Positions 5,017 to 42,488 of a stretch of DNA of 64,000 nucleotides are shown here, one piece after another; within the stretch, counting starts at the first letter, position 1; each line of letters opens with the position of its first letter. A program made the translations under genes and the position numbers. Location: positions 155,124,001-155,188,000 of the forward strand of contig CM097883.1 in the NCBI GenBank assembly GCA_044892505.1. The letters run 5' to 3'. This stretch comes from Schmidtea nova (Eukaryota). The notes below the pieces were generated by a model. The model saw nothing but the letters and a program-made list of their open reading frames with translations. It searched no databases and was not told where the DNA came from.

Positions 5017-5054
5017 GAAGTACGCGGAGCGTTTGGGAAAGGCAAAAAACGAAT

Positions 5055-16516: not shown

Positions 16517-16814
16517 AATTAAATTTGACCTGCACTAACGATTAATATAAACCAATTTACATTATTATGTCTTTATGATTACTAGGTGTTCTTACCCTTC
16601 TTTTCGGTTCCCGAGGGAATGTTCCTCGCCCGTTCGCGCTCCTATTCCCTATCTACGTCTTCCCCCTCATGCATTTTATTATTAGGTTGTTCAGTAAGTA
16701 ATATGAAGTTGTTAAAATTTAAAATAAACATTTTGATCATAAACTTGTCTCTCAATTAAATCGTCATTACTCTCAGTCGTAAGTCACTTAATTTCCATGA
16801 TTTGAACGGGTCTA

Positions 16815-16995
16815 GGTGATTTCCCCCCCCGGTAATTCCCCCCCGGTGATTTCCCCCCGGTAATTTCCCCCCGGTGATTCCCCCCCGGTAATTTCCCCCC
16901 GGTGATTCCCCCCCGGTAATTCCCCCCCCGGTGATTCCCCCCCGGTGATTTCCCCCCCCGGTTATTTCCCCCCGGATGATTTCCCCTGGATTTTC
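16815..16995. repeat. Left subterminal array of ~15-bp units (C6-8)GGT(G/A)ATT
   Basis: Read directly. The inverted counterpart is at ~19105-19234. Confidence 0.95.
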
Positions 16996-17285
16996 CTACA
17001 ATGACACCCCCGGCAATAAAAGAGAAATACCGAACATTTTCTTATTTAACAAACTTATTTAACAAACTAACTTGTTTAACAAACTAACACACAAACCAGT
17101 TATTACTAGCCACAGTTCACATGACACACTAATTAATTAACTAATTAATTATTTAACTAACTAATTAATAAAGAATTAATAAAGTCGTTTTATAGTATTC
17201 AACTGTTATAAGATGTAAAAATTATTAAAATGTCGTTTCAATTATGCTTGGAAAAATGAATACAAAACAAACTTTAATCATCCAG

Positions 17286-18698: not shown

Positions 18699-19104
18699 GG
18701 ATTATTTTTTAAATTTGATAAATTTAAAATTAAATTTGTTTTAACACGTGGCTATTGCATAAACATAGAGTAGTAGTAGTAGTAGATAAAACATAGATGA
18801 AAACATAGAATATTAATATATTTATATAGTGGCGATTAGTGTTCGTAATACAATATTTCCAAAACATTCGTAATACAATATTAATAATAATATTCGTAAT
18901 ACAATATTTCCAAAACATTCGCTAGATGACAGTCTACACACTCAACCACAGCAAAGAAGATTGCCAGTATAGCGGGATTATTAGAATTATTGTGTTTCGT
19001 CACTTAGCATAATGGTTTTATAAACTTGGATTGTAGCGGAAGACTGAGTTTGCATACCCTTTTAAATTACCCTTTTAAAAAACCCTTTTAAATTTAACCT
19101 TTTA

Positions 19105-19234
19105 CCGGGGGGAGATCACCGGGGGGGAAATTACCGGGGAGAAATTACCGGGGGGGAATCGCCGGGGGGAAATCACCGGGGGGGAATCACCGGGGGGAAA
19201 TCACCGGGGGGAAATTACCGGGGGGGAATCACCT
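19105..19234. repeat. Right subterminal G-run array (inverse of 16815-16995)
   Basis: Repeats of AAT(C/T)ACC(G6-7). Confidence 0.95.
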
Positions 19235-20593
19235 GTTCCCGATTTGAACACAATCGAGTAGACACGTACCTACTCCACTAGACACTTAACAGTATGGCAT
19301 TCCCACTCATACGCTTATTTTTTCACGTCCACCCGCTTACCTCAACATACTCATATATTTCGAGGAGTGCTCTCACCCACTCAGCTTATAACTCTCTGTA
19401 ATTGCATGCTGCCCATTTACGCTCAATGGCTCTCAACACTCTACTCATCTACACTTCTCTACTAAATTCTAAAAATAGAAATTTTTCAATTCGACCGTCT
19501 ACTCGAGATCTCCTCTTGAGCAACTCACAATGATTGGTACTTGACTGGCTTCTATTCATGAACAATTTATTACAATGACGGGAGTGAGCAATTTAATTAA
19601 ATTGGAATTATTATTACCGTCGGGAATTAAATGACAAAATTTTTGTGAACGATCGCGATAATCGCGAACTACTTAATTACTTGAAATTTATTGGGTGACG
19701 GGGAATTCAATAAATGCTTCTACTCAGTGTTATTCATCGCAATCTCGAGTTATGACTGGTCTCGACAAAATTTATGATTGACTCAACAATTATCGTAACT
19801 TTCCAACCGGAACACTACTTAATCGCTAGGATATACGCAATTTATCTGTATAGTTGATACTATTTTAATGATCTATCATTCTGACAGTTTGCGTCGTCGA
19901 AAATTCATGTAAAGGGTCTCCGCAAATGCGCGTTTGCTGACAGATTTAGTAATTACAAAAATTGAGTAAACGAAACTCTGACCCGGCCTCACAACATTCA
20001 CCATTTACGCCTTATAATCTTTACTATTCGTCTTATACGGAGATCCCTATCTCCGCCCCATGATCGGAATAACGAAATTGAAAGCGAAATCCCCGGAGAG
20101 CCCGCAACCCTCGTGGTCGTCCAATTCTCGCATTATCTATGTACATTAATGATAACAAAAACAATGACTTACAATAATTCCAAGATGATCACGAATAATT
20201 AAGTGAGTGTTCCTTCGAGTGTCTTTGAAAATTCAATAAATTAGAATTTGGAAAATTTGCTAATGCCGTTGAAAATTTTTTACTGGTGAATGATATTTAT
20301 TCTACTGACTTGAGCGCCCCTTTTTATACTAAATTTGGCGCTCAAGCAGACAATCAGGATCGAGCTAGCTTTTTATTCGCTAAAAGATTCGATTTCTTAT
20401 TTTATTTATTTTAACTTTCTTATTTATCTTTTTCTGATTATTATTTATTGTTATTGTGATTTCTTATTTATTGTTAAACACAGCAATTCAGGTCTAAAAG
20501 GTAGACTTCCCATTCATTTTCCATAGTTCGTATTCTCCTTTTTATCTTTTGTTTTGTCGTCTATTGACGTCTCTTCTTTTATTTTCTCTATTT

Positions 20594-21449
20594 TTATGTT
20601 CTTACTTGTTTATATTCGTCGTAATCTTCATCGTGGATGTCATATTCTACTCTACCTAACAACGGAAAAATGTCGTCCTTGACATTGATTATTTTGATCA
20701 TTTCTATATATGACTGTTTCGCCATTGTTTGTGCTTCAAATTCTTCTCTTACCAGATAGTCTGGTGGTTCTTGATATCTCAATTTGTGTTTTAGTAGTTT
20801 CTCCTTAGCTATTGCCCATTTGTCTACATATCCTGGCATGATTTGTTTCCATTTTTCTATTCTCTCTTTCTTCAGGGTTGTATGTGAACCTGAGGTCTTC
20901 TCTGTTCATGAAGATTCCAAGTATTTCTGGGTTTTTTATGCCTAGTAATGCCTGCGAGATAAACCAATTTTGATTACGCTCCATTATACAGTTTGCGCCG
21001 AATGCTGGTTTTTCTTTGATTGGGTTTATCCAGGTTATTATCAGTCTTGTTACTTCTTCTCTGTATAACACAAATACGAGATTTGTTTTGCTTACATTCT
21101 TTGTTAGGTGTTCTATCTCTTCTTGATTCCTTATCGTTCTTAGGAAGTTTATCATCTCGCGGTTCGGTATTGTCATTGTTACGCCCAATATGGAGCTTCC
21201 CTTTTCCATTTTACCCATGAGGTTAACTCCATCTCTATATAATCCCTCTAGTACCTTCTGCTTTGACCCCGTTCTTGTTGTGCCTCCTTTTCCACGCAAC
21301 GAATTCATATCGTATCCGCATGTTATCATGATTCCTGCAATCTCTATAATTTTCCTATCTTTTTCTTCCTGAAATGCGCGGTGTATCGGTAGCATGTTGT
21401 CCTTCTTTAATAAAAATAAGACTGGTATTTCTTTTTTTATTACTAACAT
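20594..21449 (-). pseudogene. Frameshifted ankyrin-repeat cargo ORF, paralogue of the C-terminal half of 21641-23200
   Basis: LPIHRA..., GSSILG..MINFL..QEEIEHL, RLIITW..P, EILGIFMNREDLRF and QSYIEMIKIINVK align in order with the neighbouring ORF. ORFs 20805-21449 and 20594-20839 overlap and join by one frameshift. Confidence 0.65.
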
Positions 21450-21640
21450 ATGTAATTTCCTCTAGCTTATTTATGTACTTTATCTACGATTTCTCCTAGG
21501 ATTTCCAATGAATGTTTCGCATCCTTGAACTGTGATATTATTTCTCTCGCTTTTTCTGCTATTGCTTCTAACCTTCCGTTATAGTCGGCATTTGCATTGA
21601 ATAAAATTGATGGATTCTCTATCGGTTCTATTGTTTGCCG

Positions 21641-23343
21641 CTATACTTGTAGTTTCAGCTTACTTTTCGTATTTAATATCTTTAATAGTTCCTTATACCG
21701 CTTATACAATGTTTGTCTTTCTTGAATATCGTAAAAGTATTCCCAACCCATTTCTCCATTGAACTGTCTTTCGAACCATCTTCGTATTATTCCTATAAAT
21801 TCCTCTTTTTGTTCTTTAATCATATCCTCGTTCGGGTTTTTGCTAATCCTTATATTTCCTCTATCCAATAGGATCATTAACGTTTCAGAGTCACATTTGA
21901 ATTCCAATAAATGTTTTAGCAACGCATTTTCTCCTTTGACAAATACTTGGTTCGTGTCTATCACCCATGTATCTCTTTCTGGTCTTTTCCATTTGATTAA
22001 CAAGCGCATGGTTTTGTTTTTCATACTCTTTAAGGCTTCCTTGAATACATCTCCTTGCATTAAGTTATCTATTTCGTCTTCCGTTGCGTATTCAATAATA
22101 TACTTTATCATCGTATGGCTTCTGTTTTTGATTGCTTTATCCAATACCGATTCACCTTCGTTATCTCTTGTTGTTAACTCTGATCCTGAACTAATGAGTG
22201 CATCTATAACTTCCCTTTTCACTACCGAATTTGTAACTGTCATTAGTGGTGTTATTTCTTGATGATTTGCTACTTCCGAACTGATTCCGTGGTCTTTCAT
22301 GAACCTTAGGATTTTCAATGTCCTTTTCGGTCCTACGTATGTTGTCGCATTATGTAGTGGTATATTTCCTGATTTACTTTTAAACGTCATTAATTCTGGG
22401 ATTTCTTTTACGAACAATGGTGCTTTTTCATGCGTCGATTCTCTTATTGAATATTTATGAGCTATGTTGCGTAGGTCTATTCTTTTTTCGCTATCGGGTC
22501 TTTCATTGTTCCAATCTGGAATTATTTCCTTTGCTCTCTTTATGATTTCATTAATGTCTCTTGGAATTTTCTTATCCCTTTTTGTGAATTCCGGTATCTC
22601 TTCTTCGTTGAACGTTGCTCGTAACATGCTTATTTTTGCCGTTTGTGATCTTGTCATTACTCTGTTTTCCGGTGTTATCGTTGCTGTTTTCGGTACCTTT
22701 CTACATCTATTGACACTTACGTATATCGGTCTTACCAATGGGTTATTCAACAACTTAACCCTTACGCTATTCTCGTTTATGAACGTTATTTTGTATGGTC
22801 CTTTTCCCGGCCTTTGTAATTTCTTTGTTGTTCCTGGTATTATTTCCGGGGCTTCAATGATTACCCAATCTCTTACTTTGAGATCGTGTGCCTTCACATT
22901 ATTCTTAGTATCATTTAGATCTTTGCAAATTTCTTGATAAAATTTGATATTCAATCCTGCTGTCTTCCAAATTTCTTGCATACGTTCTTTGAATTTCGTC
23001 ACACAATCATCTATTTCCATATACTGAGATAGCGGTTGTTGGTACTCCAAGTCTATCGGCATGTTACAGCTTCTCCCGTAGATCAGCTGGAATGGGCTCA
23101 TTTTCGTGGCTGAGTGTATAGACATTCTATAAGACATTAAACACAATTTAATGTATTCATCCCAATCTGTTTGGTGTCTGATCACGTAGTTTGATAGCAA
23201 ATTTGATTAATGTCCGGTTAAAACGTTCCGTTTGTCCATTCGTTTGTGGATGGTAGGGTGATGTTGTCAACTTGGCTATTCTGAAGTTGTTTGCTACTTC
23301 GCTGATTATCTCACTCATGAAGTTAGTGCCTTGGTCTGTTCCT
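21641..23343 (-). CDS. 5'-truncated Gypsy integrase (core end + GPY) fused in frame to ~3 ankyrin repeats and a C-terminal domain; frameshift near 23205
   Basis: TDQGTNFMS..SPYHPQTNGQTERFNRTL, then DWDEYI..SPFQLIYGR..GPYKI, then NIPLHNA / ITPLMTV / RDNEGESVLDKAI. Confidence 0.85.
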
Positions 23344-26565: not shown

Positions 26566-27401
26566 CCTATAAACAAATATTAATAATAATTTAAATGAGT
26601 TTCTACTTAAGTACTCTCGATGATTTATGGGCAAACGGTAAATTAGAATAAACGTTAAGCGATACTTAGGTCCCCTTGTCCTAACGTTGGGATACCTGTA
26701 AACTCGGTAAACTCGATTTTTACAGTACCTAAATAAAATGGATATTGGATTTTCAAAAAAAGGGATTCTGTCGGTTCTGGATTGGGTTAAAACAAAAATA
26801 GTAAATTAAACAAAACGCTCTAGGGATTCCTCCATCCAAGACCTAACATAAAAAGCTTACATATCCACGAGCACCCTCGATCATTTCCCTGTAATAATCG
26901 AGTTGGAAATGTGCAAGGTGTTTGAACAATGATGGGCAGGTGAGCTCTATTGCTAAAACTACTCCCCATTTATGTTCACGGGTTCGTCTCGCTGCCGATA
27001 GAAGGACTTACGCTTTAACTTTAATCTATCCGCCTCCATTATCTTTCATTTTAATGTTTCTTTTAGCCCCCTTTCTTTACAATATTTTTCAACTTTCAAC
27101 TTTTGTTTCAGCCCCTTTCTTTACAATATCTTTCAACTCTCAACTTTTCTTTCAGCCCCCTTCTTTACAATATCAACAAATAATCTCTAATCAATTACAA
27201 TTTATTATCTCTTTAATGTTTCTATTGTTTATTAGATTTATGTTAATCTTATTGTTAATTCTAATGTATAGTTAATTTATTCTATATTTTCCTTTAAATT
27301 ATTTTAAATTTTTAATAAATCACATTATTTTCTATACTTTACCATAAAATAAATACAAACAAAAATTATTTAATAAGCAAAATTCACAAATCACAAAATT
27401 T

Positions 27402-27995
27402 CTAATCAAAATATTTAGTAATGTCTTCATCCGATATTGCAAAGTTCATGGTTAGATCAATCTCGGGAATTTCTTTTGATTGTTGTGCCAATTGCTGGAG
27501 AACTTGTTTCTTCCAGCGACGCTGGCGTGCTCCCATCTTGCTCTTCTTCTTCCTTTTACCTTCTGGATTTGTCGTGTTCTTTGGTGTACTTGCTGCTATT
27601 GTTATTGCACGAACCTGAGATGGTTCCTCGGTGTTTGTTCCTTTTGTGCATCCTGCTTTCTCGTCAGCCCAATGCTGATAAGTGATTGGTCGAATGAGCT
27701 GGCTGAGCTCCTGAGTTAAATACGATGCCGTTACAGATTTTAGACATTTCTTTAGTTCCATCTTCGTCGCGTCCAATTCCATTTGGATCTCCTCGTTGGC
27801 TCGCTGTGAGCGTTGATTTTTTATGATTTGTGTTTTCATCTGCTCTGGACTGAACCAGCTTTTCTTCAGGTTTGAGATTATGCCATCGGCTTCTTTTATT
27901 TTTTCCGATTTCCGTAACATTTCTTTTTCCAGGCTGCGAATTATCCTCCATGCTTTATCCAATTCGGCTTGATTAGTTGCTGTGTTGGCTGACAT
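27402..27995 (-). CDS. LTR-encoded 197-aa coiled-coil protein with a Lys/Arg-rich C-terminal motif (LIRP family), 3' LTR copy
   Basis: Intact in both LTRs; WFSPEQMK, LIRPITY, GKRKKKSKMGARQRRWKK. Confidence 0.8.
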   Translation of the reverse strand: MSANTATNQAELDKAWRIIRSLEKEMLRKSEKIKEADGIISNLKKSWFSPEQMKTQIIKNQRSQRANEEIQMELDATKMELKKCLKSVTASYLTQELSQLIRPITYQHWADEKAGCTKGTNTEEPSQVRAITIAASTPKNTTNPEGKRKKKSKMGARQRRWKKQVLQQLAQQSKEIPEIDLTMNFAISDEDITKYFD

Positions 27996-28730
27996 TCTCT
28001 AAAATTCAAGATGGTTTATTAACATGAAATTGGTAGTCTTGATTCGAACGATTCTCATACTTTTGACAGTTATTAATTGTTAATTCAGGAAGAGAAAATG
28101 ATTTACCTATTACACTTTCAACACTGTCGCTATGTACAGCGATCAGATACATTTATTTCATAATATATTTTATTTATTCACGCCTGTGCTATATACAGCA
28201 TTCAGGTTACCAAATTATTTAAATAAACTAAGATCCACTGCCCTATGTACAGGGTTCAGGATAAGCCATTATATTTAATTATTTATGTGGAATGTTTGAA
28301 CCTATAGCCTATTGCTGCTATGTTACTTGCGTAGTAGATCACTACGTTATTAGAGTTATCGATTTTTATATTGTTATTAAAAAATATATTTTGTACAAAT
28401 GCTTAACCGTGTATCTGCCGCTCTATGCCCACAAACCCCAGATGTGACAATCGAAAAATATAGGTGAACACTCGGTGAATCTCAAGGTAAAATCAGATTA
28501 ATAAAATCACAGCTATATCTGTCTCAAACTAAAATCAAACTCAACCCAACTATAAACTTATAAAATCAATTCGGTTATAAAATAAAAACTTCAACTGGCT
28601 ATACTCCAGTGAAAAATAAGGTTAGAAATCAAAAAATAAAAATTCCTACCCTCTTCACGGCGCTTTACACCGGTCGGACGGCCCAACTGTACGGAGCAGT
28701 CGTTTCTACTCGGCACAGTATGCCTCCATT

Positions 28731-29008
28731 TCACCGATTGCACGGTGATCGGAGCCCCTTAAATCATACGTAATTTTCTACTATAACTACGGTATATAAA
28801 TAATATATATTCGCCTCCTTCCACTGATTGCACAGTGGAAGAAGCTCGACCCAAAAATATTCATAAAAGAATGTATACTTATACGTATTTGTTAGCATTC
28901 TACCATAAGGTTGTCTCCTTCCACTGATTTCACAGTGGAAGAAGCTTAATAAAATATAAATAGGTATATAGATATCTTTGTCTCCTTCCACCGATTTCAC
29001 GGTGGAAG
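28731..29008. repeat. Four stem-loops with a shared hexaloop ATT(G/T)CA (second set at 40072-40349)
   Basis: TCACCG/CGGTGA at 28731-28748; CTTCCACTG/CAGTGGAAG at 28818-28841 and 28918-28941; CTTCCACCG/CGGTGGAAG at 28985-29008. Confidence 0.9.
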
Positions 29009-29140
29009 AAGCTTGAATACTTCTAAATTCAAAGAAAAGAATAAATCCTAGATAATATTTCATAAAGTTTATTGATAATCAAATAATGGCTAACAGAAAT
29101 CATAAAACAATAGTAACAAAATTATCAAAAATTCAAAAAT

Positions 29141-29290
29141 CCATACCTGTTAGTTTTTTCAATAAAATTGTCTCACAAAAGTTGTCAATAACAAAATGTT
29201 GAAAAATATCATACATTGAATTTAACTGAATCTGGATCAGTATTTATACTGACCAGATCAGATGCTGAACCAATCAGCGTGAAGCTGATT
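29141..29290 (-). promoter_or_regulatory. Putative LTR core promoter and major splice donor (CCAAT-like box, TATAAATA 29241-29248, Inr-like TCAGTT 29224-29229, CAG|GTATGG donor at 29146); same layout at ~40482-40630
   Basis: Motifs read directly. The TATA+TCAGT arrangement recurs in LTR-A and LTR-C. Function is inferred. Confidence 0.55.
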
Positions 29291-29824
29291 ATCAGATCAG
29301 CACAAATAATAAATTTTATTAACGTTAAAATCAATTGATTTTGTTGTCAATTGCTAGCAATTTGCTATTTTGATTTTTATTATTTTTTGTAATTCTACTT
29401 ATTTGCTTTACTTTCTTTTTTATTTAAATATAATTAAATATCATCTTTCTTTAACACTTTTACATTTTCCATTTACTTTCTTCTAATTTTGATATTAAAT
29501 TAATATTCTTTATTACATTTTAATTCGTTTTTTACTGATATTTCTCGTAATTATATTCATTTAATTTGTTCCTATTTTTTCTTATTATTCTTATTATTTA
29601 TGCTAAATGTGGACCAAATGGTGGATCCAACATCACTCGGGGACCCCTAAAATTGCGTCCCGCAATTAATTATACACTATTACTTGTACTCAACATTCAT
29701 AAAAAATTTTACGTTTGATACATAAGCATAAAGATTCACATAAGGTGAGTTTATTCTATACGTAATCACGAAAAAAATATAAAGAAAATTCAGATAATTG
29801 TTAATCAAATATTTTGTCAAGTAT

Positions 29825-30388
29825 TTATGGTTTATACAAATAGTTCATAACTCGCACTGGATTGGACTGGTTCTGTGGAATTGCTGGTAATTCGTATTGG
29901 GTTTGTATTCTGTTGAGCTGATTTCTCATTTGTCTTCGGGCATTGTCATCATGTGCTGTTGTTTGGTTGATGATTGATTGTTTTTGTTTAAGAACTTTTA
30001 TTCTGTATACTGCGATGAGAATGGTAATTGCGCAGGTTGTTGTACTAATTGTTAATACGATTATAATCGCAACGATCCATCGCTCTTGGTATTGCATTTC
30101 TGCTCGATGTAAATTCTTTATAGTTTCTTTACTTTCTTTTAGGGTTTTTCGAATCTTCTCTAATTTGTTATTGATTTTGCACAGGGTTTGTTGCGTTGAT
30201 ACTGGGTTAGGTGCTGTTGACAATTGAATTTGAGAGATTTCTCTGACTGTTCCTTTTAATAGATTATCTATTTCTTTATAGATTTTATCGGGTAAGACTT
30301 GTAGATTTTCTTTTGATATCGGACGGTCTTCTCTTTGTTGGGTGATCTCGATTACGTTTAGGATTATCAGTATTGCGAGTTTCTTCAT
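29825..30388 (-). CDS. Small predicted type-I membrane protein (signal-like N-terminus, coiled coil, TM, cytoplasmic tail) in the env position
   Basis: MKKLAILIILNVIE; TM WIVAIIIVLTISTTTCAITILIAVY followed by RIKVLKQK; tail contains YELP and NYLY. Confidence 0.7.
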   Translation of the reverse strand: MKKLAILIILNVIEITQQREDRPISKENLQVLPDKIYKEIDNLLKGTVREISQIQLSTAPNPVSTQQTLCKINNKLEKIRKTLKESKETIKNLHRAEMQYQERWIVAIIIVLTISTTTCAITILIAVYRIKVLKQKQSIINQTTAHDDNARRQMRNQLNRIQTQYELPAIPQNQSNPVRVMNYLYKP

Positions 30389-30461: not shown

Positions 30462-31565
30462 TTAAACTAACGACTCATTGGGTTCGTGAAAACCTTCATC
30501 TTGAGGTTCCACTTGGTTTGTAGGGGGTGGTAACCACACTATCGTGTTTCTCCACATTGTTACTTCGTCTCGATAGAAGTGTGATAATTGGATTTCTTCA
30601 TCCAACAGATATTCTAAATAGTTTGATTGTTCTGTTAATGCTTCGATCTGTTTTTCTAATTCTGTTATTTTTTTGTTTTTCTCTTCCTCTTCCATCATTT
30701 TTATTACTGCCTTGGTGATATCTGTCTCTTTTGGTGGTGTTAATTTTTGTATCAGTTTTTGTTTCAACTCTTCATTTTCTTTGGTTAAATTTAATAAATT
30801 TTCCTCATAGCTTTGTTTTGCTTCCTCTAATTTTAATAAATTTTCTTCATAGCTTTGTTTTGCTTCTTCTAATCTTTCTTTAGTTTTCTTTAATTCTATC
30901 TTCTTTTGAGTGATTACTCCTTGATAACCATTAATATCGCGCTTCATATCTTCCTCTTTCTGCATCCCTGCTCTGAGGTTTGCATCTGATTGTTGTTTAC
31001 TGAAATACAATTCTCTTTCCGATCTTTCAATCTGGTGCATAAGTTGTTTAATTTTTCCTGCTTGCTCTCTGATGAATTGTTGTCTCTTTTTATTCCATTT
31101 TTTGCTCGATATTTCCTGATAGGTTCTCTGTTCTAATTCCTCTTTTAATTTATCGATTTCTTCAAATAATTTCCAATCATCGCTGTACGCCGTTCTTTCG
31201 ATTATTTCTCTTGCTTTCGTATAAGATTCTTTCGCTTCTTTTTTCCAATATCTTGCTTGCTCGGTAATGGAGTACATTTTCCGTTCCATTTCTGTTCGTT
31301 CTCTCTCTCTTTCTTCTCGTCGTTCTTTCATCATCTTTTTATAATATTCTTTTTGTTTCTCCAATAATTCATATAATTCGTCTATTTTATCTTGACTTAA
31401 TTGCTTTAATCTTTTGGCTTCTGTTATTTGTTCGGCTTGTCTTTCTACTTCTTTTTGTTTGTGGTAATATGCGTGGATCCAACTTTCAATTTGTTCTAAA
31501 TGCTCACAAATAACTTCATCTTGATGTTCGGTTACTTCTTGTAAACTGATTTCGACGTTTCCCAT
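30462..31565 (-). CDS. Coiled-coil cargo protein of unknown function, 367 aa, with a 14-aa internal duplication
   Basis: E/K/Q-rich heptads; EEAKQSYEENLLKL / EEAKQSYEENLLNL. Confidence 0.75.
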   Translation of the reverse strand: MGNVEISLQEVTEHQDEVICEHLEQIESWIHAYYHKQKEVERQAEQITEAKRLKQLSQDKIDELYELLEKQKEYYKKMMKERREERERERTEMERKMYSITEQARYWKKEAKESYTKAREIIERTAYSDDWKLFEEIDKLKEELEQRTYQEISSKKWNKKRQQFIREQAGKIKQLMHQIERSERELYFSKQQSDANLRAGMQKEEDMKRDINGYQGVITQKKIELKKTKERLEEAKQSYEENLLKLEEAKQSYEENLLNLTKENEELKQKLIQKLTPPKETDITKAVIKMMEEEEKNKKITELEKQIEALTEQSNYLEYLLDEEIQLSHFYRDEVTMWRNTIVWLPPPTNQVEPQDEGFHEPNESLV

Positions 31566-31670: not shown

Positions 31671-33026
31671 CTACGCCAACCATCCTTTTCTATCTGCCTT
31701 CTCGTTCCTTTCCATTTCTATGTATAAGGTGTCCTCATACAATAATCCCCATATCTTGCTTTGTAATACAAAGTGTGGTTCTCCACTTGCTAATCCACAT
31801 TCTTCTGTTGGTCTGTTACTCGTAACTGCTCCTTTTTCTGTCGTGAATCTCTTTTCTATGGTTTCGTTTAAACCCCTGATTTTTATCATTACTCCTACTC
31901 CTATTGGCCAATCGATTAAATCGTCATATTCTCCTTTGCAAAACGCAAAAAATATTGATAGGTGTTTTCCCATACTTTTCCCATCTCCGTTTGGATATAC
32001 TTTCAATCTCACTTTAGCCCCGTTTTTCCATAAGTAAAATGGTGGGCTTAGTACCGCAGTTTTCTTGAAGCTTCGTGCATCTTCCAATTTATTTCGAAAA
32101 TCCGTTATTTTCCATACATAAGGTGCTATTGGTAAATCTTTTTTCTCATCAATTTCTTGTATTAACTTGTTATATTGCACTTTCATTCCTTTTGCTAATT
32201 CCTTGATGGCTATTATTTTCTTTTCCATCTTTTCTCGGGTTAGTTCAAATTGTTCTCTCGTTTCTAATAATAGGTTCATCATTATTTTATGAGATTCTAC
32301 TTCCTTTTCTAATTTCTGAATTGTTCTATCCGTCATTTCAATATGATTGATTGCTTCTGTTTCTAAATGTTGTTTCATATTTTGTTGAGACTTCTTTTCC
32401 TTGCATCCATATCTGTTGTAAGGACATTCTCTTGGTATTTCTGTACACTTTTTCCAATGTTCTCGTAATTTCACTTCTTCGGTAATTTCACATTTGTTTG
32501 GGCACACTCCTACATACTGTTCGCATATTCTCTCTTCTTTTTTATTGATGTGCTCTTCTTCAATTTTTCTCCTTGTTTCTCGAATTTCGCAATATTCACA
32601 TGCGATTTCTTCCTCTTTGCATTCATCTCTGTGTTTCTCTTTGTCTTTTAAAATTATCGTTTCTTTACACTTTTCACATTCGCTTCTCTTTTCTTCACAA
32701 TTTTCTATATGATTTTCAATTTCACTGATTTGTCCTTGCCATATGCACGGTGGATTTATACATTCAATTAATATGCTCATAATTTCTCTCTGAGTTGCTC
32801 TATCTGGTCTTGTTTCGTCTAATACTATTTGTCCCTCTTTACATTCTGGACATTCTGTTATTTTCTTTAGTTCCAACATTTGTACACATCTGGTGCATAA
32901 TTTACATCCGCAGGCGGTTTGCTTCGGTTTTCGTAATAAATTATTACAATATCCACATACAAATCTCTTGTTCCACTTTCTGTTTGCTGCTCTCAAAATC
33001 TCGACTGCTCGTTCCTCTTTATCCAT
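31671..33026 (-). CDS. Intronless full-length TRAF-like protein (RING, TRAF zinc fingers, coiled coil, MATH)
   Basis: CGYC..LLRKPKQTACGCKLCTRC..CPEC; ECINPPCIWQG; CPNKC; CPYNRYGC; YVWKITDF..SPPFY..KVRLKVYPNGDG..HLSIFF..GEYDDLIDWP. Confidence 0.93.
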   Translation of the reverse strand: MDKEERAVEILRAANRKWNKRFVCGYCNNLLRKPKQTACGCKLCTRCVQMLELKKITECPECKEGQIVLDETRPDRATQREIMSILIECINPPCIWQGQISEIENHIENCEEKRSECEKCKETIILKDKEKHRDECKEEEIACEYCEIRETRRKIEEEHINKKEERICEQYVGVCPNKCEITEEVKLREHWKKCTEIPRECPYNRYGCKEKKSQQNMKQHLETEAINHIEMTDRTIQKLEKEVESHKIMMNLLLETREQFELTREKMEKKIIAIKELAKGMKVQYNKLIQEIDEKKDLPIAPYVWKITDFRNKLEDARSFKKTAVLSPPFYLWKNGAKVRLKVYPNGDGKSMGKHLSIFFAFCKGEYDDLIDWPIGVGVMIKIRGLNETIEKRFTTEKGAVTSNRPTEECGLASGEPHFVLQSKIWGLLYEDTLYIEMERNEKADRKGWLA

Positions 33027-33118: not shown

Positions 33119-33454
33119 CTATGGTTCGCTCGTTGAATCAGGTTCTATACCATTTTCTAATCCATTTATTACCCAATCTAGCCATTGACCTTTTGATTCA
33201 TCTCTTCTTGATAGTTGATTCATTTCCACTGTTTGTCTCAATCTCTGATTCTCTCTTGTCAGTTCTGTTATTATTCTCTGTTGCTCTTCTATTTTATGTA
33301 ATTGTTCAAAGATATTGTTGTAGCAATCTGCTAATATATTTTGCTTCTCTACCAATTGATTCTGTAGTGCATTGATTGATCGAACTAACGTTTCACATTG
33401 TGCTTTCCATCGTATAGTCAAAGTCATTTCGGTTGTTTCTCCTTGTACATTCAT
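33119..33454 (-). CDS. Small coiled-coil cargo ORF, 111 aa
   Basis: ATG behind a TTTTAG acceptor; heptad pattern; same strand and codon style as its neighbours. Confidence 0.6.
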   Translation of the reverse strand: MNVQGETTEMTLTIRWKAQCETLVRSINALQNQLVEKQNILADCYNNIFEQLHKIEEQQRIITELTRENQRLRQTVEMNQLSRRDESKGQWLDWVINGLENGIEPDSTSEP

Positions 33455-33576: not shown

Positions 33577-35499
33577 CTATACTATCATCACTGCTTTTTC
33601 ATCGTGTCGCTCCTCGTCTTCTGTCTGTAAAAATGCTTCTCGGGGTAGTTTCGTCATCCCCGGAATCGTCTTGTTTACTTTATTAATTAATACTCCCACT
33701 TCCTCTTTTTCATCATATTCAAATCGAAATACATGATCGTTTGGCATGACTACCAACATCCCTTTTTGTTTAATAACTTCTTCGTTTTCTTGTACTATTT
33801 CTTTTTGGTTTTCTTCATCTTCCGGATTTGGGTTTATCTGGTTTGTTTCTGGTTCAATATCTTCCTTGTTATCTCTTGTTTGATTTGTTGCTCTCATCAT
33901 ATTAATTCTCAATGGTTGTCGTTCTCTTTCTTGTCGTTTCTGTTCGTCTTCTCTTTGTATTCTTGCCCATTCTTCAGCATGTCGTGCTTGACTTTCTCGA
34001 TTTAGTCGTTCATTTTCACTTTCCACTTTTCTCATCATATTCATTTGTTGTTGATTCGTTTGTTGGTTTCCTCTCGGTGTATTGTTTATTAATTCTGTTA
34101 ATCTTTGAACTTCTTGTAATAAATGTATTTCTTTGGTGGTACTTTTATTCTGGTTATAATTACTCTGTTGATTTTCAAAATTCTGACGGTTTCCGTTACT
34201 CTGTTGATTCGTATAATTTTGTCGATTTCCGTTGTTCGACCAATTCCTTTGCTGGTTGTTTTGTTGTTGGCAGTTCCTTGCCATATGACCTGATTGTCCA
34301 CAGTTATAACATGATCTTTGGTAACATCTATTCTCTGCATGTCCTTTTCTTCCACACTTTTTACAATTTAAATTCGCGAAACATTCTTGTTGCCAATGTC
34401 CTAACTTTCCACAGGTTTGACATTGCTTTGTCTGTCCTTGCGTACTATAATTATTTTGGTTTCTGTAATTTTGTATTTTGTTTCCTTCATTTCTCCTTTG
34501 AGGCGGTGGTCGGTTTAATTGTTGTGAATTCGGAATATGGTTATTTATCTTCATTGCTTGTTCATTTTGTGTCGTATCCATTGCTAGGTAAATTCTTCCT
34601 TCACTTCCGATCATATGTAATTCGAATCTGTTGGCAATTTCCAACGCTTCATCTATTGTTTTACAACCTTGGCATCCAACTTGTGCTCTAATATCGGGTC
34701 TTCTCAATCCTCCCACAAAAATTGCTGCCATTAATTCTGAACTCATTGGACTATTTTGATTAAATGCTAATTTAGCCAATTTCTTTAATTCACTTGCATA
34801 TACTGCATTTGATTCATTAACTTTTTGTTTCCTCATTGAAAATTCTGTAAATGCTTCATTTAATACTTTATTTATTCCAAACGTTTGCTGGAAAAAATTC
34901 TTTATCTTTTCCCAACTATCGAGTTGATCATCTGAATTTTTAGCTTCCAAATATAAATCTAACGCACTGTCTTTTAAATATAACTGAATTCTGCTTCTTA
35001 TCGTTTCTGGTTTCCATTTACATACTTCTACAAATATACCAAATTCTTTTAAAAACGTTTCTAACTTGCTGGCATCTCCATTGAATGGTTCTCCAGTAAA
35101 TTTATCTTTGATTTCTTCTTTATGTTCGTTCATTTCGATTCCGCTGTCTTGTGTCGTTTTACTCTCGTTTCCTCTTGTTTCACTAGTATGCTCGTTATTC
35201 GTTTCGTTTGAATTATTATCAATTTCTGCTTCTACTTCTTCTGTATTTATTGACTCGTTATCTGATGCTTCCGTATTATTATAATTATCGTAGGTTTCAC
35301 TTGAACTTTCTTCTGTTTCACTTTCGTTAGTTTTTGTTAATTTACTGTTTTCGATTTTTGACTTTTCTACTATTACTCTTCTTGATTTACTTCCTTTAGG
35401 ATTTGTTTTCTTTGTAACACTGGTTGCTCTTTGTTTCGATTTACTTCTCTGGGAGTTATCAACTTTTTCGATTGTAGCACTAACTGCTCTTGATCTCAA
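33577..35499 (-). CDS. gag: Gag with Ty3-type capsid region and three CCHC zinc knuckles; true N-terminus probably extends to an acceptor at 35646 across a 1-nt frameshift
   Basis: FNGDASKLETFLKEF..W..LYLKDSALDLY; CQTCGKLGHWQQEC, CKKCGRKGHAENRC, CYNCGQSGHMARNC. Confidence 0.9.
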   Translation of the reverse strand: MRSRAVSATIEKVDNSQRSKSKQRATSVTKKTNPKGSKSRRVIVEKSKIENSKLTKTNESETEESSSETYDNYNNTEASDNESINTEEVEAEIDNNSNETNNEHTSETRGNESKTTQDSGIEMNEHKEEIKDKFTGEPFNGDASKLETFLKEFGIFVEVCKWKPETIRSRIQLYLKDSALDLYLEAKNSDDQLDSWEKIKNFFQQTFGINKVLNEAFTEFSMRKQKVNESNAVYASELKKLAKLAFNQNSPMSSELMAAIFVGGLRRPDIRAQVGCQGCKTIDEALEIANRFELHMIGSEGRIYLAMDTTQNEQAMKINNHIPNSQQLNRPPPQRRNEGNKIQNYRNQNNYSTQGQTKQCQTCGKLGHWQQECFANLNCKKCGRKGHAENRCYQRSCYNCGQSGHMARNCQQQNNQQRNWSNNGNRQNYTNQQSNGNRQNFENQQSNYNQNKSTTKEIHLLQEVQRLTELINNTPRGNQQTNQQQMNMMRKVESENERLNRESQARHAEEWARIQREDEQKRQERERQPLRINMMRATNQTRDNKEDIEPETNQINPNPEDEENQKEIVQENEEVIKQKGMLVVMPNDHVFRFEYDEKEEVGVLINKVNKTIPGMTKLPREAFLQTEDEERHDEKAVMIV

Positions 35500-36247
35500 T
35501 TTATTTCTTTGTGAATTATTAACTTCTTGGTTTTTAACTGTTCTTGATCTCGGTTTACTTTTCTTTAATTTATCAATTTTTCTGTTTCTCTGTTATCGTA
35601 TTCTGATTGATTGGTTGGTTGTTTTGACTTGTTCTGTTCCGTATATCTAAATTAAAAAGTCACTTCAACGATACATCATTGTTATCGTTGCGCTTTTATT
35701 CCTCATTATTGGGTTTCCATTGTTTCCCCATTCCCGGTTTCCCCTTTATTTAAGTCTATTTAAATTATCTATTCACTGGTAACAATTATCTATATGGTCG
35801 TAATAATTATCTATCGTTATCAAATAAATTCATTACTTTTCCCTCAGTCTCCAAATTTAATTTGTCGCTCAAACGCTTTAATTCCCTTGAGTTCTCCTGA
35901 CTCAATTATCATTTTATCACTATTTACTATATCATCGTTACTCATTATTCCCACTATTGGTCATCTCTAATTTCTCATCATTACTCACTATTCTCACTAT
36001 TTCTACCGGTTTTTACGGTCAACTCTAATTTCTCCTATTCTTATTTCTACTCGTATGCATACTGAATCTCTAGTTTACCTAATCATCTTTACTTTTATTA
36101 CTCAAACTCTAATATTCACTATTCTTACTTCGTCGACGACTACAACTCTAGGTTCATATTCCTTTCGTTGCTTATCCGGATAATTTATACAACTCTAGGT
36201 TCATATTCCTTTCGTTGTCATTTAATTTCACACAATTGCAAACCTGG

Positions 36248-36664
36248 GTTCAAATTCCTTAGGTTGCCTATAATCATGAGTTCATATTCTCATGTTACTA
36301 TTATTCACTGCAATCATAAGTTCACATTCTTATGTTGCCTACAATCATGAGTTCATATTCTCATGTTACTATTATTCACTGCAATCATAGGTTCAAATTC
36401 TTATGTTGCCTACAATCATGAGTTCATATTCTCATGTTGCTATTATTCACTGCAATCATAGGTTCAAATTCTTATGTTGCCTACAATCATGAGTTCATAT
36501 TCTCATGTTGCTATTATTCACTGCAATCATAGGTTCAAATTCTTATGTTGCCTACAATCATGAGTTCATATTCTCATGTTGCTATTATTCACTGCAATCA
36601 TAGGTTCAAATTCTTATGTTGCCTACAATCATGAGTTCATATTCTCATGTTGCTATTATTCACT
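36248..36664. repeat. Tandem array of ~6 x 71-bp units, each made of two related subunits
   Basis: The unit start GTTCA(A/C)ATTC recurs at 36248, 36320, 36391, 36462, 36533 and 36604. Confidence 0.95.
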
Positions 36665-37009
36665 GTTATCATATTAACTCTTATTCTCTTTATTTCTTAC
36701 TGATCAGTTTTATATTCTCTCTTTTTATTTATTTTTTCTGCGCGCACTTAAACCTCATTAGATTGTCCCTACCTTTCACCCCAACCAAAATATACAAAAA
36801 GATCGCATTGGTCTACTAATGCAAGATGTGGTGATCAGTCACATCACAAAAGCTTTCCAATTTCCGCGATGGGCCCCTTTCTATACATCTCGGGTAAGTT
36901 GATCAGTTGGTTCCTCCCAATGGGTGCTTAACGGACTACTCGTGAGCAGCTCAAAAATTATTTATACATATCAATTGTTATTATGATTTCTGTCATTGCC
37001 ATTATCAAC

Positions 37010-37210
37010 TCTCATTTTAAATTCTCATTATTAACTCTCATTATCAATTATCATATTAATTCTCATTATGAATTCTCATATTAATTCCTATTAAGAATTC
37101 CCATATCAACTCTCATTATGAATTCTCATATTAATTCTCATTATGCATTATCATATTAATTCCCATTATGAATTATCATATTAATTCTCATTATCAATTC
37201 TCATATTTTA
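37010..37210. repeat. Degenerate short-period tandem repeat (ATTCTCATTATGA/ATTCTCATATTA-like)
   Basis: Read directly. Confidence 0.7.
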
Positions 37211-37249
37211 TTTATTACGAATAATATTACTAAATTCACCATTTATTTA

Positions 37250-37711
37250 TTATAAATACACAGTAATTCTTTCGTCTATTTCGAGATTGCACATCGGGCA
37301 TTTGTCGCAGTTGGCTGCACAGATTCCACAAAACCGAAAATGTCCAAAAGGTAAAAACATGATTTTATTCTCTCTTTCTCGACATATGTAACAGAGTTTA
37401 AATTTCTTAGCTGTCTCAGTTCCTTGTATCGTCCACTTGTGGTATGTTGGAGTTAATTGTTGTTCTAGCTGTCTGCATTTTATGTTTACATCAGCATTTT
37501 CTAATCTCGTTCGGTACCACTTGTATCTAGTTGTTATATCTATTTTGTCTACTCTTTCCATTATTTTTATCAGCTCTGTTGTCTCTTCAGTTTGTGTCAT
37601 GGGTTCTTTGAATCCGGATTCTCTTATTCGACTTATTTTCTCGCATAATTCGTCATATGTTTTGTTTTCCGTGTTTAGAAATTCTTCCGTTTCTTTTACT
37701 TTTTCGTTCAT
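37250..37711 (-). CDS. 153-aa protein with a C-terminal IAP-type RING finger (third Cys replaced by Phe), no BIR domain
   Basis: LCYICRERENKIMFLPFGHFRFCGICAANCDKCPMCNLEIDERITVYL* matches the IAP C-terminal pattern C..C....F.PCGH...C..CA....CP.CR..I....V(Y/F). Confidence 0.85.
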   Translation of the reverse strand: MNEKVKETEEFLNTENKTYDELCEKISRIRESGFKEPMTQTEETTELIKIMERVDKIDITTRYKWYRTRLENADVNIKCRQLEQQLTPTYHKWTIQGTETAKKFKLCYICRERENKIMFLPFGHFRFCGICAANCDKCPMCNLEIDERITVYL

Positions 37712-38081: not shown

Positions 38082-38099
38082 ATCCCGGCTGAGCCCCCA
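38082..38099 (-). promoter_or_regulatory. Primer-binding site, tRNA-Pro
   Basis: TGGGGGCTCAGCCGGGAT vs the canonical Pro PBS TGGGGGCTCGTCCGGGAT (16/18), 9 nt from the LTR. Confidence 0.85.
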
Positions 38100-38108
38100 A
38101 ATTTATGT

Positions 38109-40974
38109 TGTCGGTTCTGGATTGGGTTAAAACAAAAATAGTAAATTAAACAAAACGCTCTAGGGATTCCTCCATCCAAGACCTAACATAAAAGGCTTAC
38201 ATATCACACGAGCACCCTCGATCATTTCCCTGTAATAATAGAGTTGGAAATGTGCAAGGTGTTTGAACAATGATGGGCAGGTGAGCTCTATTGCTAAAAC
38301 TACTCCCCATTTATGTTCACGGGTTCGTCTCGCTGCCGATAGAAGGACTTACGCTTTAACTTTAATCTATCCGCCTCCATTATCTTTCATTTTAATGTTT
38401 CTTTTAGCCCCCTTTCTTTACAATATTTTTCAACTTTCAACTTTTGTTTCAGCCCCTTTCTTTACAATATCTTTCAACTCTCAACTTTTCTTTCAGCCCC
38501 CTTCTTTACAATATCAACAAATAATCTCTAATCAATTACAATTTATTATCTCTTTAATGTTTCTATTGTTTATTAGATTTATGTTAATCTTATTGTTAAT
38601 TCTAATGTATAGTTAATTTATTCTATATTTTCCTTTAAATTATTTTAAATTTTTAATAAATCACATTATTTTCTATACTTTACCATAAAATAAATACAAA
38701 CAAAAATTATTTAATAAGCAAAATTCACAAATCACAAAATTTCTAATCAAAATATTTAATAATGTCTTCATCCGATATTGCAAAGTTCATGGTTAGATCA
38801 ATCTCGGGAATTTCTTTTGATTGTTGTGCCAATTGCTGGAGAACTTGTTTCTTCCAGCGACGCTGGCGTGCTCCCATCTTGCTCTTCTTCTTCCTTTTAC
38901 CTTCTGGATTTGTCGTGTTCTTTGGTGTACTTGCTGCTATTGTTATTGCACGAACCTGAGATGGTTCCTCGGTGTTTGTTCCTTTTGTGCATCCTGCTTT
39001 CTCGTCAGCCCAATGCTGATAAGTGATTGGTCGAATGAGCTGGCTGAGCTCCTGAGTTAAATACGATGCCGTTACAGATTTTAGACATTTCTTTAGTTCC
39101 ATCTTCGTCGCGTCCAATTCCATTTGGATCTCCTCGTTGGCTCGCTGTGAGCGTTGATTTTTTATGATTTGTGTTTTCATCTGCTCTGGACTGAACCAGC
39201 TTTTCTTCAGGTTTGAGATTATGCCATCGGCTTCTTTTATTTTTTCCGATTTCCGTAACATTTCTTTTTCCAGGCTGCGAATTATCCTCCATGCTTTATC
39301 CAATTCGGCTTGATTAGTTGCTGTGTTGGCTGACATTCTCTAAAATTCAAGATGGTTTATTAACATGAAATTTGTAGTCTTGATTCGAACGATTCTCATA
39401 CTTTTGACAGTTATTAATTGTTAATTCAGGAAGAGAAAATGATTTACCTATTACACTTTCAACACTGTCGCTATGTACAGCGATCAGATACATTTATTTC
39501 ATAATATATTTTATTTATTCACGCCTGTGCTATATACAGCATTCAGGTTACCAAATTATTTAAATAAACTAAGATCCACTGCCCTATGTACAGGGTTCAG
39601 GATAAGCCATTATATTTAATTATTTATGTGGAATGTTTGAACCTATAGCCTATTGCTGCTATGTTACTTGCGTAGTAGATCACTACGTTATTAGAGTTAT
39701 CGATTTTTATATTGTTATTAAAAAATATATTTTGTACAAATGCTTAACCGTGTATCTGCCGCTCTATGCCCACAAACCCCAGATGTGACAATCGAAAAAT
39801 ATAGGTGAACACTCGGTGAATCTCAAGGTAAAATCAGATTAATAAAATCACAGCTATATCTGTCTCAAACTAAAATCAAACTCAACCCAACTATAAACTT
39901 ATAAAATCAATTCGGTTATAAAATAAAAACTTCAACTGGCTATACTCCAGTGAAAAATAAGGTTAGAAATCAAAAAATAAAAATTCCTACCCTCTTCACG
40001 GCGCTTTACACCGGTCGGACGGCCCAACTGTACGGAGCAGTCGTTTCTACTCGGCACAGTATGCCTCCATTTCACCGATTGCACGGTGATCGGAGCCCCT
40101 TAAATCATACGTAATTTTCTACTATAACTACGGTATATAAATAATATATATTCGCCTCCTTCCACTGATTGCACAGTGGAAGAAGCTCGACCCAAAAATA
40201 TTCATAAAAGAATGTATACTTATACGTATTTGTTAGCATTCTACCATAAGGTTGTCTCCTTCCACTGATTTCACAGTGGAAGAAGCTTAATAAAATATAA
40301 ATAGGTATATAGATATCTTTGTCTCCTTCCACCGATTTCACGGTGGAAGAAGCTTGAATACTTCTAAATTCAAAGAAAAGAATAAATCCTAGATAATATT
40401 TCATAAAGTTTATTGATAATCAAATAATGGCTAACAGAAATCATAAAACAATAGTAACAAAATTATCAAAAATTCAAAAATCCATACCTGTTAGTTTTTT
40501 CAATAAAATTGTCTCACAAAAGTTGTCAATAACAAAATGTTGAAAAATATCATACATTGAATTTAACTGAATCTGGATCAGTATTTATACTGACCAGATC
40601 AGATGCTGAACCAATCAGCGTGAAGCTGATTATCAGATCAGCACAAATAATAAATTTTATTAACGTTAAAATCAATTGATTTTGTTGTCAATTGCTAGCA
40701 ATTTGCTATTTTGATTTTTATTATTTTTTGTAATTCTACTTATTTGCTTTACTTTCTTTTTTATTTAAATATAATTAAATATCATCTTTCTTTAACACTT
40801 TTACATTTTCCATTTACTTTCTTCTAATTTTGATATTAAATTAATATTCTTTATTACATTTTAATTCGTTTTTTACTGATATTTCTCGTAATTATATTCA
40901 TTTAATTTGTTCCTATTTTTTTCTTATTATTCTTATTATTTATGCTAAATGTGGACCAAATGGTGGATCCAACA
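38109..40974 (-). repeat. 5' LTR of element B (2866 bp)
   Basis: Direct repeat of 26769-29632, adjacent to the PBS. Confidence 0.97.
38743..39336 (-). CDS. LTR-encoded 197-aa LIRP-family protein, 5' LTR copy
   Basis: One residue differs from the 27402-27995 copy (ITK vs IIK). Confidence 0.8.
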   Translation of the reverse strand: MSANTATNQAELDKAWRIIRSLEKEMLRKSEKIKEADGIISNLKKSWFSPEQMKTQIIKNQRSQRANEEIQMELDATKMELKKCLKSVTASYLTQELSQLIRPITYQHWADEKAGCTKGTNTEEPSQVRAITIAASTPKNTTNPEGKRKKKSKMGARQRRWKKQVLQQLAQQSKEIPEIDLTMNFAISDEDIIKYFD

Positions 40975-42488
40975 ATTCTCTAAATGGGTTTTCTCGAATG
41001 TCGTCCCTCCTCTGGAAGTATAAATTCAATCTCAACTCTGGGGTATACGAAATGATGGTTTTCCACACAATCTTCAGGAAATGCCCCGCTTACTCTAACG
41101 CTGGTCATTTAGCCAGAAGTGTGATGATTGATGTTCACCCAAAAAATTTATAAAATCGGGAGTGCCCTGACACGGCCGCCGGACATTCTCTGTTCAACTC
41201 AACGTTCCTCAGATCCTACAGCAATCCCTATCTTTGTCCCACACTCAGAAGTGTGAACAAAAGAGCGAAATTACTGGAGAGCCAACAGTCCCTAGGATTG
41301 TCCAGACCCTCTGGTCGGTTAATATAAATTAATATTAAAAACAACACGAATTAGATTTAAAAATTTTTCAAAGTAATACAAAACTACTTACAAACAGTTT
41401 CCGGTTAATGATCAAATCCAAAAAAAATTTGGTTGCAAGATTTGGTCTCATTCGAGTGTTGAATGACTTCGAAATTATATGTCGCTAAAATGCTGCTTAG
41501 AAAAACTAATTAATGTATAATTAACGGGAAAATGCTAATCCGACTGACTTGAGCACTTTTTATATACAGTTTTTGCGCTAAAACAGCTAATGAAAATCGT
41601 TTTAGCCTTTAATTGACCAAAATAAATCGATTTTTTAATATTTTTATTTATTTGCATTTTTCTTAATTAATTTTCATTCCCTTTTGTTAATATTCCTGTT
41701 TAATTGTTATTTAATTAATTGAATTCCTATTTTTATACTTTTCCTCTTACTTCGTATTTTATTTCAGCTTTCTTTTTTTATTTCTTGTTTTAATCTTTGT
41801 ATTTTTGTTGTTATTATTCTCTTTTATCCTTTGCTAGTTTGTTTTTATTGTTTAATTATTGTTTTTTTCCTAATTATTATGTTATTTTGTGACTATTTCT
41901 GTGTTTTTGCTAACCCAACAAAATTGAATGGCTCAACAGTCTCCTTTAAAAATCACTGTGTAGGGACAGTTGGGGTGCTTGCTATATAAATGACTGTATG
42001 TGTGCGTGTGAATGTAAACAACTAACAAATAATTATAACCACAAAAAACAATTTTAATAATAACAACTTTTATTTGATTAAAGAAAAATGAAAAAGTAAC
42101 CAGTACTCACAATTTTATCGAATAATAATTTTGTTAGTTTTTTATTTCTTTTAGCTTCTATCGCTATAGATATTTTATCTTCCTTTTTAGATTTTCGTCG
42201 TATTGTTAGGCTTTTTTAAATATGAATCTTCAATCAATTCTTCTTGTATAGAAATCCCTTCCTCTATCTTTTTTCAGTAGGAAATAGAAATTTCTCTTAG
42301 TTAGTATTTTTCCTTAATCTTCCAAATCAATTTTTCAATTCTTGCTGTTGTTAGATTCTTTTTATTTTATTTAATCTAATTGTCATGAACAATTGATTTT
42401 TATTTTTTAATTTAATTTTTTATATTTATTTAAATTTCTATTATCCTCAAGGCATAATTGCCGCAAGGACGCCCTTACTAGTAATAAC

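Follow-up and report, generated by a model that had tools for sequence, protein, structure and literature searches.

The DNA analyzed here, a 64,000-nucleotide stretch of Schmidtea nova contig CM097883.1 (the window), contains a full-length TRAF open reading frame (ORF) located between two long terminal repeats (LTRs). The first-pass annotation, made from the letters, had described an intronless gene of 451 codons with a RING, zinc fingers, a coiled coil, and a MATH domain, and this description was confirmed, with the coiled coil as a probable part, by the ORF itself, by Pfam, and by alignments with PDB entries (Table 1). The C-terminal domain matched MATH_2 (PF22486, E 4e-21) and TRAF-mep_MATH (PF21355, E 9e-18), and zf-TRAF was also matched. 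The best PDB matches of the protein are TRAF3 (E 2e-20), TRAF5, and TRAF2; its first 150 residues align with the RING and zinc fingers of the solved TRAF5, TRAF6, and TRAF2 (E 2.7e-14 to 2.6e-10). The segment before the MATH domain is conserved and helical-looking, and aligns with the coiled coil of TRAF1. Both ends are those of a TRAF family member, with a MATH/TRAF-C domain at the C-terminus and a RING with TRAF zinc fingers at the N-terminus, the RING being a C4C4 variant.

Table 1. The TRAF-carrying element in the window. F1 is the family of the window copy; F2, F3, and F4 are related families.
Feature	Position	Strand	Remarks
Target-site duplication, left copy	26765..26768		ATTC
3′ LTR	26769..29632	minus	2864 bp
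LTR-internal ORF	27402..27995	minus	197 aa; second copy at 38743-39336
Membrane-type accessory ORF	29825..30388	minus	187 aa; hydrophobic N-terminus and one membrane-span-like stretch (topology read from sequence)
Coiled-coil accessory ORF	30462..31565	minus	367 aa
TRAF ORF	31671..33026	minus	451 aa, full-length, intronless; C4C4 RING at aa 24-62, then TRAF zinc fingers, a putative coiled coil, and MATH/TRAF-C at aa 303-439 (extent of the MATH_2 match)
Small accessory ORF	33119..33454	minus	111 aa; counterparts in F2, F3, and F4
gag with CCHC knuckles	33577..35592	minus	fused by deletion to the last polyprotein codons
Tandem repeats between RING ORF and gag	36182..37231		71-nt and about 25-nt units
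Upstream accessory ORF with a C-terminal IAP-type RING	37250..37711	minus	Pfam zf-C3HC4_3; counterparts in F2, F3, and F4
Primer-binding-site-like 18-mer	38082..38099	minus	starts TGG; F3 and F4 share the start
5′ LTR	38109..40974	minus	2866 bp; begins TG
Target-site duplication, right copy	40975..40978		ATTC

All eight zinc ligands of the RING are retained. In the motif TACGCKLC, the fourth ligand is Cys where the solved TRAFs have His, as the annotation had remarked. Is this Cys a mark of cargo or of a decoy? I found that 7 of 7 host-type TRAFs in this genome also have Cys, and that a C4C4 RING occurs in 22 of the 108 library relatives with a readable RING, including named TRAF-2 and TRAF-4 of Dendrocoelum. 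Since the change is common to host planarian TRAFs, it is no sign of a decoy. The lack of introns does not mark cargo either, as host TRAFs with open frames of 417-486 aa sit outside the elements. The element TRAFs have the domain order of the TRAF1/2/3/5-type adaptors and of host planarian TRAFs (PMC6109357, PMC6125299, PMC5702613), and they share the C4C4 RING with the latter.

The surrounding repeats are direct and are flanked by a 4-bp target-site duplication, and thus the proposed position of the TRAF between two LTRs is correct. The two LTRs have TG...CA ends and differ by 4 substitutions and 2 one-base indels (99.79% identity); sister copies suggest that the 5′ LTR extends 3 nt more, to 38106. 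Since the pair is almost unchanged and ATTC lies at both flanks, the insertion is young. The order between the LTRs on the minus strand is the primer-binding-site-like sequence, which I take to resemble tRNA-Pro primer-binding sites, followed by the short RING ORF, the tandem repeats, gag, the 111-aa ORF, the TRAF, the coiled-coil ORF, and the membrane-type ORF. Rfam and tRNA gene searches returned no family and no tRNA gene. Each LTR contains three copies of a palindromic unit of ~35 nt (28811-29028 and 40152-40369), for which no Rfam match was found.

The window copy lacks pol, and its env-like, protease (PR), and ankyrin parts are also gone. It was found that 29 of 29 fetched sister loci track the window from ~33620 down through the TRAF and diverge upstream of this point. 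Thus, the window copy has suffered a deletion of ~10.3 kb relative to its sisters, with a junction at about 33614-33627 that cuts gag, and the element is 14.2 kb long after the deletion. The junction pattern has an exact match in the window only and 29 one-mismatch matches elsewhere. Seen by itself, such a copy could suggest a functionless hitch-hiker, or a host gene caught by chance between LTRs, as it is internally deleted, cannot replicate alone, and has a junction matched exactly once. The sister copies and related families bear on this reading, as described below.

Three full sisters of the window family (F1) were found; they are ~25 kb long, with paired 2.8-kb LTRs that are 99.8-100% identical and with 4-bp target-site duplications. 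The order in complete copies is gag, a Monjiviricetes-type fusion glycoprotein, PR, reverse transcriptase (RT), RNase H (RH), integrase (IN), and ankyrins, followed by the TRAF as a separate ORF. Pfam analysis of F1, F2, and F3 stretches placed the parts before the TRAF in a single polyprotein, which is not complete in the window copy; the complete F1 frame has about 5,125 codons (4,118 + 1,007, summed). Multi-kb LTRs, TG...CA ends, a target-site duplication, and a length of 25-30 kb are all found, and by this architecture the window element is classed as a Burro-like giant Ty3/gypsy retrotransposon. Together with the named Dendrocoelum relatives, this architecture suggests a dugesiid planarian as the likely host. 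Profile comparison has revealed BCL2-like, SUMO-like, and dUTPase-like regions in published elements; Pfam found none of them here.

Burro and GYPSM1 of dugesiid planarians, as described in the accessible part of PMC6431247, are likewise 25-30 kb long with multi-kb LTRs. They share with the present elements a single, very large polyprotein, in which gag and an in-frame fusion glycoprotein precede PR, RT-RH-IN, and ankyrins, and also the ubiquitin and apoptosis cargo. According to the same partial text, a Dugesia tigrina element has a 5,140-aa ORF1 without MATH and a MATH_TRAF_C domain in an accessory ORF; MATH_TRAF_C, BIR, ankyrin, and BCL2-like motifs are found in Burro elements, and an interference with apoptosis and ubiquitination has been proposed. 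A MATH/TRAF accessory ORF and BIR cargo of Burro-like elements are therefore already known from PMC6431247 (partial text), which limits the surprise of the present finding. However, the accessible Burro text names a MATH domain only, in an accessory ORF upstream, whereas here a whole RING-zinc finger-coiled coil-MATH TRAF lies downstream of pol, and that account (PMC6431247, partial text) offers no copy numbers, selection, or tree for the MATH ORF. This genome also has a Burro1-like form, with MATH within the polyprotein. A broken remnant of another Burro-like family lies in the window as well (20805-23340, minus strand), comprising an integrase end and ankyrins with 64-75% DNA identity to F1-F3.

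RT, RH, and IN are present in an open frame in five of five long F1 copies fetched and absent from three of three short copies. I measured the spacing from protease to TRAF for 57 F1 protease matches: 10 are at 8.5-8.6 kb, 37 at less than 6 kb, and 2 farther away, and 8 have no TRAF match. The commonest F1 form has lost RT-RH-IN in frame, with the rest of the polyprotein open (35 of the 57 protease matches, at 5.5-5.6 kb). A separate in-frame loss of RT-RH-IN, with a different breakpoint, arose in one F3 copy. The idea that all F1 copies lack RT was rejected by the five long copies. A splice product was also rejected as the source of the RT-RH-IN loss, since the F1 junction lies at a short repeated word and not at GT-AG.

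Is the TRAF confined to this copy? A search of the genome with the TRAF protein gave 94 matches (94 of 94 scored), 84 at 80-100% identity and 10 at 71%, and four related families were found to carry a full TRAF. F1 has 87 exact matches of a TRAF 20-mer (at least 87 loci), and F2, at 71% identity, has 46 such matches (at least 46 loci). F3 (47%) has at least 134 full-length TRAF matches at 83% or more among the 150 listed, or 146 with partial ones, and F4 (35%) accounts for 91 of 91 scored TRAF matches (at least 91 loci). Together, the four families have at least 358 TRAF loci; the family counts are lower bounds, and membership by genomic context was checked for the fetched copies. The one F2 copy read is 30.3 kb long and retains RT-RH-IN; one F3 copy read has RT-RH-IN and another does not.

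The F4 element is ~24.8 kb long, and one copy has 4.3-kb LTRs at 99.9% identity. In three of three F4 copies read, tblastn with F1 and F2 probes and Pfam found no gag, env, RT, or integrase; protease and ankyrin parts remain. The order in F4 is the small ORF, the TRAF, a BIR-RING IAP of 399 aa, the coiled-coil ORF, a 192-aa ORF, and the membrane ORF. The IAP directly after the TRAF matched Pfam BIR (E 2e-15), with cIAP1 as the best PDB match, and its BIR matches many BIR types. F1-F3 have no BIR-containing IAP beside the TRAF, only the short RING ORF. A word-indexed protein search returned one relative for the TRAF and none for the F4 IAP. The coiled-coil ORF has an acidic, conserved tail in all four families, DEGFxE and then a C-terminal ExxV (30462-30510 in the window, minus strand). 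I take DEGFxE to resemble a beta-TrCP degron with Glu as a phospho-mimic, and ExxV presumably resembles a class I PDZ-binding motif. The coiled-coil ORF gave only generic coiled-coil matches against the Atlas. Its N-terminal SLQE was considered as a TRAF ligand and rejected, being kept in neither F3 nor F4.

Selection was assessed by Nei-Gojobori counts. Among 30 F1 TRAF copies, pN/pS is 0.164, and dN/dS is 0.12-0.14 within F2 and F3 and, in F4, 0.156 among 7 TRAFs and 0.176 among 8 IAPs; these within-family sets are the best-scoring copies and lean to intact ones. Between families, the TRAF dN/dS is 0.147 for F1-F2 and 0.164 for F1-F3, the latter with dS near saturation. By domain, the F1-F2 ratio is about 0.2 for the RING, 0.1 for the zinc fingers, and 0.2 for MATH, and the coiled coil is the most conserved TRAF part between F1 and F2 (84% identity, dN 0.07). 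RT-IN is much more constrained than the TRAF (0.012, F1-F2). Of the F1 TRAF matches, 72 of 84 are free of stop codons. These ratios indicate that the element TRAF is maintained by purifying selection, and the earlier suggestion that it is retroelement cargo was correct, the gene being both multi-copy and under such selection. Hitch-hiking or chance capture between LTRs is highly improbable: a dN/dS of about 0.15 across lineages with dS over 1 largely refutes it, and the gene order is identical in the four families, with hundreds of dispersed copies.

Where did the element TRAF come from? A full-length TRAF tree was made of 46 rows (5 element TRAFs, 7 host TRAFs of this genome, and 34 proteins hand-chosen from 151 library proteins). 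The library proteins P0003, P0014, and P0022 cluster with F1-F4 in a single clade (99/98) that excludes the 7 host TRAFs; the H-type TRAFs of other organisms form a separate clade (100/99). The element clade sits on the side of the planarian-type C4C4 TRAFs, and no host TRAF is its supported sister in the 46-row tree. The element TRAF was likely captured once, long ago, from a planarian host TRAF, as judged from this topology. P0003, P0014, and P0022 are predicted proteins in public collections with UniParc-type identifiers, and their place in the element clade fits cargo filed as ordinary genes. P0022 had no match in this genome at E 1e-60. A MATH tree places the polyprotein MATH with the element TRAFs (95), a grouping that is not relied on, given the program's long-branch warning. 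Another library TRAF, P0011, has an N-terminus that looks like a C-terminal piece of integrase, perhaps from a gene-model fusion.

The element TRAFs are 25-33% identical to the host TRAFs of this genome. Among the best 150 MATH hits, 75 are dispersed hits with F3-like scores and 63 fall within C2:405-456 Mb; long polyprotein frames account for 2, and the other 10 are elsewhere. In the C2 region, close to the end of a contig, divergent MATH/TRAF genes of the host form a large cluster, part of which consists of 4-5-kb tandem repeats. Twelve sampled short-exon members of this cluster form their own clade (98) in the MATH tree, and one member locus shows introns. In 40 host-type TRAF stretches, no cassette ORFs were found; 5 had a stray match to the LTR ORF or env.

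It had been supposed that part of the planarian TRAF expansion could be element cargo annotated as host genes. A partial text of PMC6109357 reports the expansion as 99 transcripts with 121 MATH domains, and its supplement (6 files) gave no match for TRAF or PF00917. The supposition holds for the number of loci, of which cargo has hundreds, but not for diversity, as only four full-length lineages are cargo and the host cluster supplies more distinct sequences. Among the best 150 MATH hits, cargo prevails when loci are counted, and the host cluster when distinct sequences are. Since the expansion was counted on transcripts and in a named species (PMC6109357, partial text), cargo is likely a small part of it.

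The residues of the TRAF were then compared with mammalian and fish TRAF6 and TRAF2 at the groove sites of PMC6125299 (TRAF2 numbering) and the Arg-link and Arg-ZF1 sites of PMC5702613, both partial texts. In the element TRAFs, hot spot 3 is retained, with K/R, Y, and D at TRAF2 R393, Y395, and D399. The window TRAF also keeps F410 and F447, whereas F456 is replaced by Ser and the serine triad reads AVT. Hot spots 1 and 2 are changed, and the receptor-binding pattern of TRAF1/2/3/5 (hot spots 1-3) is not preserved. The C469 site is Glu in F1-F3 and Asn in F4; Glu is found there in 1 of 21 members of the C4C4 library subset, and Cys in 53 of 78 library rows. With Glu at C469 and an altered serine triad and F456, canonical PxQE ligands would be unlikely, and a new ligand is likely. 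Host planarian TRAFs, however, also deviate at the serine triad, at C469, and at the E2-contact sites, which tells against the residue argument.

In the RING region, all four families have R/K at the site of TRAF6 F118, which I take to be a hydrophobic site of the RING dimer; in 60 of the 78 library rows, this site is F, Y, I, or V. At Arg-ZF1, F1-F3 have S or I and F4 has Lys, as against K/R in 47 of 77 library rows, and the linker Arg/Lys (Arg-link) is kept in the element TRAFs. In the window TRAF, the E2-contact sites I72 and L74 are Tyr and Asn, Arg-ZF1 is Ser, and the dimer site is Arg; the I72 site is K or Y in F1-F3 and Val in F4. The residue at TRAF6 R88 is R in 29 of 29 F1 sisters and K in the window copy. 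Thus, of the E2-contact, Arg-link, Arg-ZF1, and dimer sites of a TRAF6-type K63 ligase, the window TRAF keeps Arg-link. Compared with the TRAF1/2/3/5 adaptors of the partial texts (PMC6125299, PMC5702613), the element TRAFs differ by the changed hot spots 1 and 2 and by the charged RING-dimer site.

Does the element TRAF act as a ubiquitin ligase? An active E3 whose C4C4 RING uses a host E2 through an interface unlike that of TRAF6, and which tags host defence proteins, would be consistent with the retention of the linker Arg/Lys, of the residue at TRAF6 R88, and of every one of the eight zinc ligands in the RING, and also with F4, where Arg-ZF1 is Lys and the I72 site is Val. It is nevertheless decidedly unlikely: in F1-F3, the I72 site is K or Y and Arg-ZF1 is S or I, the dimer site is R/K in every family, and TRAF6 is reported to depend on both dimers and Arg-ZF1 for its activity (PMC5702613, partial text). 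Four families have lost the hydrophobic residue at the dimer site, and three of them Arg-ZF1 as well, as would be expected of a dominant-negative decoy that joins host TRAFs via the coiled coil or RING, poisons their dimers, and binds nothing new. TRAF RING heterodimers do form and need the ZF1 of the partner (PMC5702613, partial text). However, purifying selection acts on the RING, on the zinc fingers, and on MATH, and three families that are 46-65% identical share a fixed groove Glu, which resembles new specificity rather than decay. In addition, a charged residue at the dimer site would also hinder RING pairing with host TRAFs, and the C4C4 change is shared with these. A decoy is thus somewhat unlikely.

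The cargo status, copy numbers, selection, single clade, and residue pattern may be best explained by a captured TRAF that is expressed as a trimeric adaptor with a re-targeted groove and little ligase activity of its own, dampening death or immune signalling; I consider the chances of this about even. The TRAF, carried as a 3′ accessory ORF, would be translated from its own spliced RNA. The sequence YAG was found 1-3 nt upstream of 5 of 6 accessory ATGs, as against 28 of the element's 268 ATGs (P about 7e-5, in a test chosen post hoc), and YAG also precedes the F2 and F3 TRAFs. Either cis-splicing from a leader or trans-splicing would fit this pattern. Four sequencing runs of one study, made up of contigs over coding and non-coding sequence alike and thus uninformative on transcription, had no leader-to-TRAF joint among those listed. 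The protein would then trimerise as a scaffold and bind new partners through its altered MATH groove. In mammals, TRAF2 acts together with cIAP. Similarly, the element TRAF may borrow ligase activity from the RING or IAP encoded beside it, and host death or immune signalling may be damped in cells with an active element. A TRAF2-cIAP structure is cited in the available part of PMC5702613; the likeness of F4 to this mammalian module is that TRAF and IAP genes stand side by side, a likeness known here from the genes. F4, with Lys at Arg-ZF1 and Asn in the groove, may differ in action from the other families.

The adaptor reading can be extended to the whole cassette. A spliced, virus-like set, consisting of the re-targeted TRAF, an IAP or RING ligase, and the coiled-coil protein with a degron-mimic tail and a PDZ-binding end, might rewire host ubiquitin signalling; F4, without gag, env, RT, and integrase, might spread on its strength, and the several hundred loci might be a dispersed signalling gene family. 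Taken jointly, these propositions are unlikely. The mRNAs degraded by piRNAs are enriched for TRAF zinc-finger, ankyrin, and E3 transcripts (PMC6824462, partial text), and it is an idea that such piRNA-target transcripts in PMC6824462 include element cargo. If the cassette acts as a set, some of the 'genic' piRNA-target TRAF, ankyrin, and E3 transcripts in planarians would be element cargo.

As described in the accessible part of PMC13465017, Lee et al. 2026 (Dev Cell) found that a Burro1 BIR-RING protein protects stem cells, a host-transposon mutualism. The present elements resemble this B-IAP case in that an element-borne BIR-RING IAP is found and the cargo would act on cell death; however, the function of B-IAP concerns an IAP, whereas F1-F3 carry a TRAF without an adjacent BIR protein (PMC13465017, partial text). 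With the TRAF cargo, what is known from the Burro1 IAP would widen to include a second arm of death signalling. In the literature covered, with most subscription papers outside it (Grohme 2018 and Lee 2026 may show these ORFs), I found no whole TRAF gene, copy number, selection, or tree in such elements; the accessible parts of PMC8532177, PMC11663942, and PMC11410931 contain nothing on TRAF cargo. Retrotransposons seldom retain a complete innate-immune signalling adaptor under selection. Planarian TRAF counts, TRAF RNAi results, and lists of piRNA targets can mix host genes with cargo, and the tree and the residue pattern offer a means of separating element TRAFs from host TRAFs.

Two other mobile elements were seen in the window. 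A second Ty3/gypsy element of ordinary size, with 508-bp LTRs at 99.6% identity, lies at 4499-10896 on the minus strand. Ahead of a gag-like part, the first frame of this element (8776-10848) weakly matches ribosomal L6e and Ig V-set in Pfam, and these L6e-like and Ig V-set-like parts are possibly captured host pieces. At 16810-19247, an ORF for a MULE/FLYWCH transposase (17286-18701) lies between GC-rich inverted arrays of 14-nt repeats.
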